Shown piece after piece: positions 47,046-64,000 of a stretch of 64,000 nucleotides of DNA. The stretch covers positions 894,361 through 958,360 of the forward strand of contig JBFWOS010000001.1 of NCBI GenBank assembly GCA_050250375.1, in the 5' to 3' direction. This stretch comes from Candidatus Omnitrophota bacterium (GTDB lineage Bacteria; Omnitrophota; Gorgyraeia; Zapsychrales; Zapsychraceae). A program made the position numbers and the translations under genes. A model generated the notes under the pieces. It made no database searches, had not been told where the DNA came from, and worked only from the letters and a program-made list of their open reading frames with translations. Within the stretch, counting starts at the first letter, position 1. Each line of letters starts with the position of its first letter.

Positions 47046-47360
47046 TTACAATTTCAAACCGTATGTATTATTAATATACTGCGTAATACTTTGAGCTGTC
47101 TGAGACGGCATCTTGACTTCTTCAACACAATTAATCTTCCAACCCTGTGCGACCGCGACCGCTTTTCCCAACAATCGGTAATGGAATTCAAACCGGTTCA
47201 TCTCCGTGACCGTGCTCAAGTCTTCGCCGGCGAGCGCAAAATCAAGAATAATCCGGGACAATGACTCCAGGTCAACGACATGATAGCGGTCTTTATTGCT
47301 GAACAGATCTTTGACGGCCTGGGTTATGCTCGCGCGGGTGCTGCTCTCAAATTCGTTCAT
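47046..47360 (-). CDS. hypothetical cytoplasmic protein
   Basis: 104-aa ORF at the distal end of the pilus-like cluster. Confidence 0.4.
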   Translation of the reverse strand: MNEFESSTRASITQAVKDLFSNKDRYHVVDLESLSRIILDFALAGEDLSTVTEMNRFEFHYRLLGKAVAVAQGWKINCVEEVKMPSQTAQSITQYINNTYGLKL

Positions 47361-47493
47361 TCAACAATACCCCCATTAATATTTTGTTATTATCTGCTTC
47401 TTCCGCAATCGGAAAGCTTAAACATTCTAACATTCATCCGGTGACAAGTCTTTTATTTTCTGCGTAAGGGAAAAATCGACAGGAAAATCTATA

Positions 47494-47964
47494 CTAATAC
47501 AAACCGGTTCTCAGTTCGATATGATCCATCCCGTCACTGAGGACAACCACATTTTTCCGGATGGCCATCACAGTATATTCACCGAATGTGTCGTTAACGG
47601 CGACATACCGGTTGTTGATGACGGCGCTGGGATTCTGGTCGTCCCAGAAAATCCCGTTCAAGACCGGATCGGAATCCACGGCTTTATCCTGAGCCAAGGC
47701 GTTATTCGTTTTGAACTCTTCACCGTAATAAAAAGGGTTCCTGCCCCAGCCTTCATCCAATTCCTGCGAAAAGCTCAGAACCGTTACCTTTTTAAGTTGT
47801 TTGGCCAGGACGGTCAATTCGTTTTTCAATAAATCAGCTTCTTTGGTTTCTTTAGTCTTTTTAAAGGGAACCGTGCCCGGGGTATTTGACGCCTTAAACC
47901 ATATCCCCAGCGATATAAATATCAATAGGGGCAGCATTAACTGCAACACTTTATTTTTTTCCAC
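47494..47964 (-). CDS. PilP/GspC-like periplasmic assembly protein
   Basis: N-terminal TM or signal anchor with a small periplasmic beta-rich domain. Position in the cluster supports the call. Confidence 0.45.
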   Translation of the reverse strand: MEKNKVLQLMLPLLIFISLGIWFKASNTPGTVPFKKTKETKEADLLKNELTVLAKQLKKVTVLSFSQELDEGWGRNPFYYGEEFKTNNALAQDKAVDSDPVLNGIFWDDQNPSAVINNRYVAVNDTFGEYTVMAIRKNVVVLSDGMDHIELRTGLY

Positions 47965-48484
47965 GTTTAACGCCTTTGAGATAAATATCCACGTTCAAAC
48001 TGGCCTTGACCGTCGGTTGTATTGTTTCATCTCTGACAATATCAAAACTGCGCACCCGTACGGCCCCCCTTTCCAGATGGTTCAACGCGTCCAGAAATTC
48101 ACCCAGATTAGAATAATCCGACTGTATGTTGAGGTCCAGGGATTGATAAGGAAATTTAACCCGCTTTCTGTCGGTTTTTTCATCAAGACTGATCGTAATG
48201 AATGTTATGCCGTTTTCTTCTCCCAGCCGCATGATTTCATGGATGACCCCGGTGACTTCTTCCTTTGTCACCGGAGCGCCGGCCATTAATTCATTTTTTG
48301 TTTCGTGAAGGACTCCCCTGACCAGGGCCATATCATTTTTAATCCGGAATGTTTCTTGTTCGAGAAGGATAATTTCCTTTTCCTTGGGACGATAGACAAA
48401 GACGAACAATAAAAATAAGGCGCACAGAAAAACGGTCATGGCCGCAACTTTTAATAAACTTTGTTCCCCGTTGAATAATTTCAT
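47951..48484 (-). CDS. PilO/GspM-like inner-membrane assembly protein
   Basis: Single TM segment, coiled coil and periplasmic domain. Size and position are those of PilO or GspM. Confidence 0.55.
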   Translation of the reverse strand: MKLFNGEQSLLKVAAMTVFLCALFLLFVFVYRPKEKEIILLEQETFRIKNDMALVRGVLHETKNELMAGAPVTKEEVTGVIHEIMRLGEENGITFITISLDEKTDRKRVKFPYQSLDLNIQSDYSNLGEFLDALNHLERGAVRVRSFDIVRDETIQPTVKASLNVDIYLKGVKRGKK

Positions 48485-61723: not shown

Positions 61724-61939
61724 AGTGACCTCGGGTTTCGTTGTGAATTATTTTCTCTAATTTCCTATTTTTCCTATTTCTCTGATTTCTCTTCAAGTAT
61801 AGCCCAAAATCTTAAGCTGTCAATGTCCGCCAAACAGTATTTTCATAAAAAAAGGAGAACGGCTTTTTAAGCGGTTCTCCCTGTAGAATATTTTCCAGAT
61901 GGTATTAATATTTATTATAACTAATTAAAATACAATAAT

Positions 61940-63097
61940 TTATGATATATTTAACATAAAATTGAAGCTGCTCCCCTTGCCTAATTCGGATTCTACCCAA
62001 ATCTTCCCCTTATGCTGGTTAATAATTTCCTTACAAATGGCCAGCCCGAGCCCTGTCCCATCTTTGGATTTTGCGTCTAATTGCTGAAATTTCTTGAATA
62101 ATTTGGGGATGTCATCAGGACCTATCCCGGCCCCGGTATCCCGGGTGCTCACAACTAATTTGCCACCATCCCGTTTGGCGGTAATCAGGACGCCGCCTTG
62201 TTTCGTAAATTTGATTGAGTTCGTTACCAGATTATTCAAAACCTGACTGATCCGGTCCGCGTCAAAATTAAAACTGGGCAATCCCGGATCCACTTCCGCT
62301 TTTAAATATAATCCTGTTTTCTGCGCGCCGGGCTGGTTGACCTCAACGACTTCCTCAATGATCTTCCCTATATTATTCGGCTGCAACTTAATATCCATCT
62401 TGCCCGATTCCAGTTTTGAAATATCGAGCACATCATCAATCAAGCGCCGCAGACGGTCGACATTCAATTTGGCCTTGTTTAAAAATTTATTCTGTTCTTC
62501 GTTCAGGACCCCGGACGTTTCGCTGATGACAATATCAATCGCTGTTTTTATGGAGGCCAGCGGCGTGCGTAACTCGTGAGATACGACCGTTGAAAATTCT
62601 TTTTGTTTTTCATACATCGTGGACAGCCGCATATTGATTTCTTCCAGCTCGGCATTGCGTTCTTTGGCTATTTTCAGCAACAGTCTGTTTTTCTGGACCA
62701 AATCATAATGATAAAGGGACTCTTTGACGACTTTTCTTAAATATTCCGGCTCACAGGGTTTGTGGATAAACCGGTAAATGCCGCTGACATTAATCGCGTC
62801 CTCAACATCCTGGATGTCGGCCTGTCCCGACAGCAAAATTCTCAACGATTCCGGTTTTTTTTCCTTCACCTGCCCCAAAAATTTAACCCCGGTAATATCC
62901 GGCATGCACTGGTCGCTGACGACGAGTTTAATGTTGTTTTCATCGACTACTTTCAAAGCCTCATTAAAATCAGTCGTGGCCAGAACGCCGAAATCTTCCC
63001 TTTTAAACATTTTATTCATCGCGTAGACGATGTCTTCTTCGTCATCCAGGAACAGGACATTGAGTTCTTTTTCAGTTTTGTCAGGATCAATTGTCAT
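61940..63097 (-). CDS. REC-HisKA-HATPase hybrid, paralogue 3
   Basis: VLFLDDE...LVVSDQCMP; VSHELRTPLASIKTA; GTGLGLAICK. Confidence 0.85.
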   Translation of the reverse strand: MTIDPDKTEKELNVLFLDDEEDIVYAMNKMFKREDFGVLATTDFNEALKVVDENNIKLVVSDQCMPDITGVKFLGQVKEKKPESLRILLSGQADIQDVEDAINVSGIYRFIHKPCEPEYLRKVVKESLYHYDLVQKNRLLLKIAKERNAELEEINMRLSTMYEKQKEFSTVVSHELRTPLASIKTAIDIVISETSGVLNEEQNKFLNKAKLNVDRLRRLIDDVLDISKLESGKMDIKLQPNNIGKIIEEVVEVNQPGAQKTGLYLKAEVDPGLPSFNFDADRISQVLNNLVTNSIKFTKQGGVLITAKRDGGKLVVSTRDTGAGIGPDDIPKLFKKFQQLDAKSKDGTGLGLAICKEIINQHKGKIWVESELGKGSSFNFMLNIS

Positions 63098-63125
63098 AAT
63101 GGTTTAATTCAAGTTTACCACCCGG

Positions 63126-64000
63126 TCATTTCCTGGGCAAAGAAATCTTGAAAGTACTCCCCTTTCCTATCTGGGATTCTACTTCCAGACGCCCCTGGTG
63201 GTGGTCGACAATAATTTCATAACTGATGCTTAACCCCAGTCCTGTGCCCATGCCGACCGGCTTGGTGGTGAAAAACGGATCGAATATTCGTTTCCGGGTT
63301 TCTTCATCCATTCCCTGCCCGGAATCTGATACCGTTATGCAGACATATTGGTCATCCTCGAACGAGGTAACTTTGACGATACCATGCTGGGTGATGGCCT
63401 GGGCCGCGTTGACCAGCAGATTGATCAGGACCTGGCTGATCTGCTGCGGGTAACACTCAACCTTCGACACCGCCTTTAAATCTTTTTCGATGTCGGCTTT
63501 GTATTTGAGCTCGTTGAAGGTCAGATCAAGGGAATTCTGGACGATGTCATTGACCTGGACCAGCAATTTCTTTTCTTCGGAAATATGGCTAAAAGACCGC
63601 AGACCGCGCACAATCTTTCCGACGCGTTCAATCCCCTGGTTTGATTCGTTCAGCAGGTTCTTCGTGTCTTCGATCAAAAAATCAATATCCACATCATTCA
63701 TTTTTTCTCTCAGCTGTTTGGTGTATTTATTGATGTCTTCGACCTGGTTACCGGCTGTAGACTGCTGGACCTTAACGGATAATTCGACCAGACGGCTGTA
63801 CGTTTCAAAATATTCTTTCAAGACCTGAAGGTTCCCGCCGACAAAACCGATGGGGTTATTGATTTCATGCGCGACGCCGGCTGCCAGCTGGCCGATGGAC
63901 GCCATTTTTTCCGCCTGCAGGAGATGGTCCTGGGTCCGTTTCAGTTCTTCATGCGACTGTTTCAACTCAGACATTTTCTTCTCTAACAACTCCTGCTTTT
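63126..64000 (-). CDS. cytoplasmic orphan histidine kinase, paralogue of 58894-59961, 5' end outside window
   Basis: [17 protein letters not shown]-box and HATPase_c. The reading frame stays open to the window edge. About 80 N-terminal residues are missing when compared with the paralogue. Confidence 0.8.

Follow-up and report, generated by a model that had tools for sequence, protein, structure and literature searches.

Gene content and transcription signals of the locus

We analysed a stretch of 64,000 nucleotides from Candidatus Omnitrophota bacterium (assembly GCA_050250375.1, contig JBFWOS010000001.1, positions 894,361 to 958,360; hereafter the window), one end of which is occupied by a minus-strand array of signalling and filament genes running from beyond position 64000 down to 47046. 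According to Pfam searches on the six-frame open reading frames (ORFs), ten cytoplasmic two-component genes run directly into the genes of a filament machine, all on the minus strand. A preliminary description, drawn from the sequence alone, had presented the locus as a machine resembling a pilus or a type II secretion system (T2SS), physically fused to a dedicated multi-kinase signalling battery. Its gene map was borne out, as every domain call was matched by Pfam, all genes share one strand and the junctions are short or overlapping. From the window end downwards, the features are:

63126..64000, minus: HK-B, C-terminal part of a histidine kinase (Pfam HisKA and HATPase); the gene continues beyond the window end
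61940..63097, minus: hyb3, a REC-HisKA-HATPase hybrid with N-terminal receiver (Pfam)
61847..61881, minus: intrinsic terminator 3' of hyb3, predicted from sequence and folding
61796..61823, minus: predicted sigma-70-type promoter, TTGACA-16-TATACT, 11 of 12 consensus positions
61760..61781, minus: GGA-rich tandem repeat AGAAATAGGAAAAATAGGAAAT in the 5' leader
61139..61723, minus: HTH-REC, an HTH_17 (MerR-like)-REC response regulator (Pfam), first gene of the long operon
59961..61106, minus: stand-alone NosP-like protein with FIST_N and FIST_C (Pfam, 175 and 130 bits)
58894..59961, minus: HK-A, a 355-aa cytoplasmic kinase with a 'HEINNP' H-box (Pfam) and no recognised sensor domain
57674..58861, minus: hyb2, a REC-HisKA-HATPase hybrid (Pfam)
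56503..57681, minus: hyb1, a REC-HisKA-HATPase hybrid (Pfam)
56127..56516, minus: REC1, a single-domain receiver of 129 aa (Pfam)
55272..56105, minus: REC-pseudoREC, a tandem receiver of 277 aa (Pfam Response_reg only)
54875..55249, minus: REC3, a single-domain CheY-like receiver of 124 aa (Pfam)
53243..54859, minus: GspE/PilB-like assembly ATPase (Pfam MshEN and T2SSE, 462 bits)
52025..53239, minus: GspF/PilC platform protein (Pfam T2SSF, two stretches)
51545..51994, minus: GspG-like major (pseudo)pilin (Pfam N_methyl and weak T2SSG), with a prepilin N-methylation motif
51139..51522, minus: minor pilin of 127 aa (Pfam N_methyl; weak PilV and ComGE matches)
50602..51117, minus: minor pilin of 171 aa with a GFTITE prepilin motif and orthologues in other loci
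50129..50602, minus: pilin-like protein of 157 aa in the PilX_N/GspK position, with a hydrophobic N-terminal helix (transmembrane residues 9-27)
48481..50124, minus: PilM-transmembrane-PilN fusion of 547 aa (Pfam PilM_2 and PilN)
47951..48484, minus: PilO/GspM-like protein (Pfam PilO)
47494..47964, minus: p156, a GspC-HR/GspB/PilP-like protein of 156 aa in which an N-terminal transmembrane helix is joined by a linker to a small C-terminal beta domain
47046..47360, minus: p104, an ORF of 104 aa with no family match (Pfam, NCBIfam)

Between HTH-REC and p156, neighbouring genes are spaced by -14 to +32 bp, with overlaps at six junctions. Our promoter and terminator scan, together with the list of junctions, revealed no terminator or good promoter between the signalling and the filament genes, and this also holds for the 22-bp and 15-bp gaps that flank REC3, where no terminator or credible promoter was found. 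The physical continuity claimed in the preliminary description, with junctions of at most 32 bp, is therefore confirmed. At the distal end, the membership of p104 in the system is doubtful because a 133-bp gap precedes it and it is conserved only in L008 (74% identity), a locus from a close relative. We also considered a mobile element or a recent horizontal insertion and rejected both, given an unremarkable composition (GC content of 0.44-0.48 in the locus and 0.36-0.48 in the window) and the lack of mobility genes.

The continuation past the window end was read from NCBI assembly GCA_050181705.1, in a contig encoding a residue-for-residue identical PilB. HK-B, which the window end cuts and which had been taken for a bare orphan kinase, is a protein of 462 aa with a weak GAF match at full length (GAF_2, E 8.6e-4; L174:8584-9972), and a GAF domain is also present in its L008 orthologue. 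Upstream of HK-B on the same strand lie a REC gene (145 aa) and then a dCache-HAMP membrane kinase (633 aa); Hpt, CheA/CheW-type or MCP domains were not recorded in the genes upstream of the window end. The full array, including this extension, thus comprises six kinases, along with nine phosphorylatable receivers and one pseudo-receiver, ten receiver-fold domains altogether.

The 216-bp gap between hyb3 and HTH-REC, previously described as AT-rich, does exist, but it is no mere spacer, as it carries both the intrinsic terminator and the promoter matching 11 of 12 consensus positions. The terminator hairpin, GGGAGAACCGC-UUAAAAA-GCCGUUCUCC followed by U7, lies directly 3' of hyb3, and the 111-nt stretch containing it has a fold z-score of -4.15; in L008 the stem sequence differs, with the hairpin and the T-run kept. 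This terminator was found by eye and by folding and was missed by our terminator scan, which returned 31 terminator-like sites against 20.9 ± 5.1 expected, nearly all of them inside coding sequence. The TTGACA-16-TATACT site is the best promoter-like site between 46000 and 64000, both of its hexamers are identical in L008, and similar TTGACA promoters are found ahead of the first gene in the related cassettes of L004, L009 and L011 considered below. Because the gap holds a terminator and a promoter, the array is probably transcribed as two units, the dCache kinase, REC, HK-B and hyb3 genes in one, and HTH-REC through at least p156 (18 genes) in the other. Promoters and terminators separating signalling from pilus genes had been named beforehand as a finding that would speak against the fusion; none lies at that border, while the HK-B/hyb3 unit is split from the rest.

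The GGA-rich repeat AGAAATAGGAAAAATAGGAAAT at 61760-61781 is unique in the window, with 0 occurrences expected by chance, and is identical in L008. Similar AGGA/GGA repeats of about 9 nt follow the cassette promoter in L002:6890-6945, L009:4570-4620 and L011:7190-7230. The leader repeat could be an operator for HTH-REC or a site acting at the RNA level, for example a CsrA-type GGA motif. A weak terminator-like hairpin (6 pairs, poor T-run) was also observed at the junction between HTH-REC and the FIST gene (61130-61148, minus); it might attenuate read-through and leave HTH-REC in excess over the products of the downstream genes.

Signalling proteins and filament machine

When aligned to CheY, all seven true receivers of the window keep D12, D13, D57, T/S87 and K109, hyb3 having S87. 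At positions 12, 13, 57, 87 and 109, the second domain of the 277-aa protein instead carries E, D, K, F and A, and it is therefore a pseudo-receiver. The AlphaFold2 (AF2) model of REC-pseudoREC has a predicted local distance difference test (pLDDT) score of 85, and its top matches in the PDB are the REC-REC' stem of PleD, with E-values of about 1e-13. Its N-terminal domain shares 52% identity with REC1. The H-box histidine is kept in all five window kinases, and the proposal that the kinase/hybrid module had been duplicated is supported by clear paralogy: HK-A and HK-B are 43% identical and hyb1 and hyb3 59%, against 44% for hyb1/hyb2 and 43% for hyb2/hyb3. According to a crude hydropathy scan, none of the window signalling proteins contains transmembrane segments.

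Part of the cascade resembles a known family. The FIST stop codon and the HK-A start codon share 1 nt, and the sole NCBIfam match of the FIST protein is NosP (NF041558), which scores 68 bits (cut-off 450). In all three hybrids, receiver and linker match the profile of the NosR family (141-187 bits, positions 1-166 to 1-234; 187 bits for hyb1 and 149 for hyb3, with a cut-off of 400), and their C-terminal part consists of HisKA and HATPase domains (Pfam). The best NCBIfam match of HK-A and HK-B is 'T2SS_HK', at 282-287 bits (287 for HK-A) and a cut-off of 450.

In the ten signalling proteins, we found no Hpt, CheA/CheW, MCP or sigma-54 activator domains (Pfam, E <= 0.01) and no CheB/CheR or PATAN domains (Pfam, NCBIfam). 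This agrees with the earlier statement that the locus lacks Hpt, CheA and a sigma-54 regulator of the PilR type. In contrast, the view that its outputs are CheY-like receivers is only partly correct: REC1 and REC3 are indeed receiver-only proteins, but because HTH-REC, the only DNA-binding output in the locus, heads the operon, the outputs are not exclusively CheY-like.

The filament genes follow a T2SS-like order, while their products stay under the curated NCBIfam cut-offs for either kind of machine. The ATPase reaches 615 as GspE (cut-off 630) and 604 as PilB (676), the platform protein 371 as GspF (424), the major pilin 55 as GspG (88.85), and the PilM-PilN fusion 109 with the pilM subfamily model (133). 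In the fusion, PilM_2 covers residues 32-362 and PilN residues 477-556 (longest-ORF numbering), with a single transmembrane segment at 389-407, which is a GspL-like topology. Neither a canonical prepilin motif nor a Pfam match was detected in the 157-aa pilin-like protein, the L008 orthologue of which has a weak PilX_N match. Omnitrophota clusters of this kind were classed as type IVa pili (T4aP) in a published survey, where two-component genes are not mentioned (PMC10066038). We use the label 'T2SS/T4P-like filament machine' (T4P, type IV pili).

The assignment of p156 deserves caution. The protein is conserved in Omnitrophota loci at 25-62% identity, and its orthologue in L091 has a weak T2SSC match (E 1.4e-3). 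Its AF2 model is shallow (six close homologues) and has a pLDDT of 65 overall and of 74-88 in the C-terminal domain, and its top Foldseek matches, GspB (4wfw), GspC (3oss_C), PulC (6hcg) and PilP (2lc4), all have non-significant E-values; a search of its profile against PDB sequences gave no match at E <= 10. Because the model is shallow and the Foldseek E-values are non-significant, the label 'GspC/PilP-like' is only suggestive, and 'PilP-like', as proposed earlier, is weakly supported.

Other Omnitrophota loci provide further observations on this machine. A GspD-type secretin is encoded immediately upstream of REC-PilB in L091:7907-9604 and L175:7951-9579, where the window has the signalling genes, and in L091 a stand-alone MerR/HTH_17 protein of 81 aa is encoded just before the secretin. 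With respect to cyclic di-GMP (c-di-GMP), the window PilB scores 32.9 bits with the model of the MshEN c-di-GMP motif (MshE-related; cut-off 38), pilus-linked kinases elsewhere carry a PilZ domain (L176:7805-9829) or a GGDEF domain (L091:4713-7118), and GAF-HD-GYP genes flank the operon in other Omnitrophota (cf. L175:20643-21617). Such domain matches hint at a possible c-di-GMP cross-talk with the filament operon.

Distribution of the two modules in Omnitrophota

PilB orthologues are abundant in Omnitrophota (58-67% identity), and those with a named source come from Omnitrophica/Omnitrophota. We compared eleven filament loci, namely the window, L008, L091-L093, L095, L096, L098, L104, L175 and L176, which share a conserved order of REC, PilB, PilC, GspG-like pilin, minor pilins, PilM-PilN fusion, PilO and p156. 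A single-domain phosphorylatable REC is encoded 6-36 bp upstream of PilB in nine of the eleven loci and within two genes of it in all eleven, and of the ten loci with sufficient flanking sequence, nine have one or more HisKA-type kinases at most 3 kb upstream. Receiver and kinase genes ahead of the filament operon, as noted for the window, are therefore a conserved trait of Omnitrophota. The sensor domains of the pilus-adjacent kinases differ from locus to locus (MASE3, HAMP-PAS-GAF, dCache, GAF, PAS-PilZ).

Orthologues of REC3, which in the window lies 15 bp upstream of PilB, are PilB-proximal in 10 loci (32-88% identity). The mean column identity of the family is 63%; D10, D53, T83 and K106 are invariant, and D9 nearly so. 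The PilM-PilN fusion is present in all Omnitrophota-type loci with downstream sequence. As a control, we reused the non-orthologous loci recovered in a metagenome scan with the PilC alignment. Among the matches listed, 28 generic T4aP loci have enough flanking sequence; none of them has a REC or a kinase upstream of PilB and none has the PilM-PilN fusion, while 23 have PilT between PilB and PilC. Genes resembling PilS/PilR are found in these loci on the downstream side of PilC. A leading receiver gene is therefore a specific trait of the Omnitrophota operon, and REC3 belongs to the machine module, of which it is the sole constant signalling partner.

The signalling genes have a different distribution. 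REC-pseudoREC has 355 homologues at E <= 1e-10, and those with a named source belong to Omnitrophica/Omnitrophota, with the exception of one protein from a hydrothermal-vent metagenome. The patterns derived from the REC-pseudoREC alignment for a scan of the genome collection correspond to generic receiver motifs; at least five loci (L011-L015) are true Omnitrophota orthologues, and the 75 other listed loci are unrelated receivers and were left out, except for L016. We examined nine distant loci (L002, L004, L006, L009 and L011-L015), whose proteins are 37-53% identical to REC-pseudoREC. In all nine, a hyb1-like REC-kinase hybrid is encoded directly upstream of REC-pseudoREC (hyb1 orthologues with 51-55% identity in L011, L014 and L015), and in most of them a kinase of the HK-A type directly precedes the hybrid. 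The cassette also contains HK-A orthologues (45-49% identity), which in L014 and L015 immediately precede the hybrid. HTH-REC stands at the front in five distant loci, as 51%-identity orthologues in L011 and L014 and with the same architecture in L002, L004 and L009. Elsewhere, HK-A-type kinases have varied sensor parts and neighbours (PAS, HAMP, solute-binding proteins, a permease), and the cassette looks like a constant core with variable inputs.

No homologues of PilB, PilC or the PilM-PilN fusion were found within 10 kb of the cassette in any of the nine distant loci. The cassette core (HTH_17-REC, HK-A-type kinase, REC-kinase hybrid and REC-pseudoREC) is therefore phylum-wide, and its usual context is not a pilus. 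It follows that the battery is not 'dedicated' to the machine, contrary to the preliminary description, because its core is a phylum-wide cassette usually found apart from pilus genes. In the window lineage the cassette has been amplified, with a second hybrid, REC1 and the upstream HK-B/hyb3 unit with its own terminator. Among the loci examined, the whole arrangement including the filament genes recurs only in L008, a JGI metagenome contig whose proteins are 60-91% identical to those of the window (most of them 81-91%). The synteny of signalling and pilus genes, proposed earlier as a check, is thus retained in this relative, while all nine distant loci have the cassette alone.

The kinases adjoining the pilus operon in other Omnitrophota share the HisKA core of the hybrids, and some pilus-linked receivers (L092, L095 and L096) best match the N-terminal domain of REC-pseudoREC, not REC3. 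Therefore, the same kinase and receiver families serve both contexts.

A side observation concerns an uncultured Planctomycetia metagenome-assembled genome. At L016:4707-12711 it encodes, in order, a FIST protein, a GAF-kinase, a tandem REC protein and a REC-GGDEF protein, and this array faces, in convergent orientation, two genes for T2SSE-family ATPases, of which one carries a fused ParA/MinD-like domain. This locus hints that arrays of FIST, kinase and tandem-receiver genes near secretion ATPases may occur outside Omnitrophota as well.

Several other genes lie downstream of the filament operon on the minus strand. A PMT_2-type membrane glycosyltransferase (499 aa; 45048-46547) follows the operon, as it does in L008 (65% identity), and its product may have a role in glycosylating pilins or the surface. 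A CHASE-domain histidine kinase (609 aa) with an adjoining single-domain REC (131 aa) is located 7 kb downstream (38031-40268). A MORN-repeat protein (549 aa; 34931-36580) and a GH2-family glycosidase-like protein (663 aa; 41649-43640) are encoded downstream as well. Recurrent proximity of GH2 enzymes and of secretion or pilus genes to giant Omnitrophota proteins has been reported (bioRxiv 10.64898/2026.06.07.730766); no giant ORF is present in the 64-kb window.

Functional interpretation and comparison with known systems

The best candidate of the preliminary description, a combined regulatory-plus-apparatus system, holds insofar as the coupling is real and non-canonical, and fails insofar as a terminator and a promoter split the battery, which is also partly NosP-related and not dedicated to the machine. 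With a probability of about 0.5, we favour the reading that two separately conserved Omnitrophota modules have been joined here, and that a cascade from kinase to REC-kinase to CheY-like receiver acts on the assembly motor, with transcriptional feedback. In the window lineage, the cassette stands directly upstream of the machine module and is predicted to be transcribed with it from one sigma-70 promoter. Under this joined-module reading, the NosP-like FIST protein would modulate the autophosphorylation of HK-A, and further inputs would come from the GAF-containing HK-B and, beyond the window, from the membrane dCache kinase. The 'HEINNP'-type kinases would phosphorylate the NosR-like N-terminal receivers of the hybrids and so switch their kinase cores, and the hybrids would in turn phosphorylate REC-pseudoREC, REC1, REC3 and HTH-REC. 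Phosphorylated REC3 would then act on the PilB/PilC/PilM platform, gating filament assembly, while HTH-REC would feed back on transcription of the operon. The parts of this model that are seen directly are the gene content, residues, gene order, conserved adjacencies and the predicted promoter and terminator; we infer all phosphotransfer routes and the target of REC3 from gene adjacency, from the analogy with NosP/NosK/NosR and from the precedent of CheY-like regulators of pili. A stronger version, which we consider only tentatively, is that the REC3 family constitutes an integral phosphorylation-controlled subunit of a T2SS/T4P-like motor, fed by exchangeable sensor kinases instead of CheA, into which a NosP-like gas/haem cascade has been plugged in this lineage.

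Several points weigh against the joined-module reading. The scores for NosP, GspE, PilB, GspF and GspG are all under the curated cut-offs. Neither a secretin, a prepilin peptidase nor a PilT/retraction ATPase is encoded in the 64-kb window, and the secretin must be located elsewhere in the genome. REC3 could be fed by kinases encoded elsewhere. Because the cassette occurs without pilus genes in nine of nine distant loci, its ancestral output was not the filament machine, and a join present in the window genome and one close relative only is weak evidence for selection on the junction. These last considerations lead to the main rival explanation, which we regard as possible: the two modules would be adjacent but functionally separate after a recent neutral rearrangement, the cassette keeping an ancestral role unrelated to the pilus through HTH-REC and REC-pseudoREC, and REC3 alone regulating the machine, fed by another kinase. 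The absence of pilus genes within 10 kb of the distant cassettes, the secretin gene found upstream of REC3 in L091 and L175 in place of kinases, and the restriction of the join to two closely related genomes are all in its favour. However, the gaps of 22 and 15 bp on either side of REC3, with no terminator or credible promoter found in them, speak against separate modules, as do the hybrid-type HisKA core of pilus-adjacent kinases elsewhere and the REC-pseudoREC-like receivers of L092, L095 and L096; moreover, co-transcription would couple at least the expression of the two modules.

A purely transcriptional control seems unlikely. Here, the kinases would converge on HTH-REC, switching the promoter at 61796-61823 and with it the 18-gene operon, and the remaining receivers would be sinks or connectors that do not touch the motor. 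The position of HTH-REC as first gene after a conserved promoter and the conserved tandem repeats of the leader would fit this explanation, and phosphate-sink roles of additional CheY-like proteins are established, as proposed for instance for PilH (PMC11656802). Nevertheless, REC3 stays just before PilB in the absence of HTH-REC, even where no kinase is nearby (L175, L091), which points to a role tied to the motor rather than to the 61796-61823 promoter; the conservation of its family (63% mean column identity) is also far higher than a sink would predict. Finally, the CheY-like receivers beside the pilus operon recall PilG/PilH and the cyanobacterial Tax1 system (PMC10519157; PMC11181946; preprint 10.1101/2021.06.11.447907), so that a divergent chemotaxis-like (Pil-Chp/Frz/Tax) or PilS/PilR system could be envisaged. 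We consider it highly improbable, as the ten signalling proteins contain no CheA (Hpt, CheW-like), MCP, CheW, CheB/CheR, PATAN or sigma-54 AAA+ domain, and PilS/PilR-like genes are found instead downstream of PilC in the generic control loci. With their defining domains not found, systems of the Chp or PilS/PilR type proper were ruled out, in agreement with the earlier remark that the arrangement is neither.

Omnitrophota are uncultured, mostly ultra-small and suspected to be host-dependent or predatory, and their type-IV-like filaments are thought to mediate attachment (PMC10066038); the control of these filaments is not addressed in the searchable literature. A REC gene fixed ahead of the assembly-ATPase gene throughout the phylum represents a testable candidate for direct, CheA-independent control of GspE/PilB motors, and the joining of cassette and machine in one lineage amounts to a natural 'wiring experiment'. 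If REC3 were a motor subunit, it would constitute a new post-translational mode of control of the GspE/PilB ATPase, and the system might link the sensing of a host or of redox gases to attachment in ultra-small, possibly predatory bacteria.

Type IV pilus motors of other bacteria are known targets of CheY-type regulators (PMC10519157; PMC11656802; preprint 10.1101/2021.06.11.447907). As in Pil-Chp (PilG/PilH) and with the PATAN regulators of Synechocystis, small phosphorylatable receivers without output domains are encoded with pilus genes in Omnitrophota, and such receivers are believed to target the assembly ATPase or the platform and not DNA (PMC10519157; PMC11656802; PMC11181946; preprint 10.1101/2021.06.11.447907). 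In contrast to these systems, CheA, MCP, CheW and PATAN are missing from the window signalling proteins, the predicted phosphodonors are HisKA kinases including REC-kinase hybrids, and the receiver gene is the first of a pilB operon with T2SS-like gene order and a PilM-PilN fusion. The locus also differs from PilS/PilR, since no Sigma54_activat domain was detected in the signalling proteins and all window kinases lack transmembrane segments. With regard to the machine, the order E-F-G-minor pilins-L-M, the GspG-like major pilin, the GspL-like bitopic fusion with its PilO partner and the secretin gene upstream in L091 and L175 are shared with the T2SS (gspC-M), whereas the equivalog scores are under cut-off and Pfam assigns the L and M proteins to PilM, PilN and PilO. 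It differs from T4aP in a PilB under the equivalog cut-off, in the lack of PilT from the locus and in the fusion of PilM with PilN.

A close known counterpart of the signalling part is the NosP system, in which a FIST-domain haem sensor controls an adjacent sensorless kinase that phosphorylates NosR (PMC12570481). The window likewise has a stand-alone FIST gene next to that of a sensorless cytoplasmic kinase (NosK, or NahK, in the known system), with a 1-nt overlap, followed by a NosR-type receiver and linker. The FIST protein stays under the NosP cut-off, however, with 68 of 450 bits. In contrast to NosR, the receiver is here fused to a histidine kinase and not to an HD-GYP/c-di-GMP domain, and the signal would therefore be passed on by a second phosphorylation tier. 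Thus, the possibility raised at the outset, that the kinases belong to characterised families, applies in part: FIST, HK-A and the hybrid receivers resemble NosP, NosK and NosR, with NosP and NosR scores below their cut-offs.

REC-pseudoREC shares with the PleD stem a canonical receiver followed by a receiver-fold domain without acceptor aspartate (Lys at Asp57), but is a stand-alone protein of 277 aa, with no GGDEF or other output, that is largely restricted to Omnitrophota. Clustered kinases predicted to converge on few receivers are also known from multikinase networks such as GacS/RetS/LadS of Pseudomonas (PMC5992135; PMC8175716). In the window, however, the receiver precedes the kinase part in the hybrids and an Hpt step is missing, so that the predicted logic runs from kinase to receiver-controlled kinase to receiver, and is neither a His-Asp-His-Asp relay nor an inhibition between kinases. 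The REC-to-kinase hybrids with NosR-like receivers thus suggest a kinase-to-kinase phosphorylation tier without an Hpt step. As for the system being 'undescribed', neither the REC-PilB linkage nor the four-gene cassette was found described in the searchable literature, whereas FIST, HK-A and the hybrid receivers have their likeness in NosP/NosK/NosR (PMC12570481). Although each class of component is known, the novelty lies in how they are combined, in the receiver-first operon and in the kinase-to-kinase tier without Hpt.

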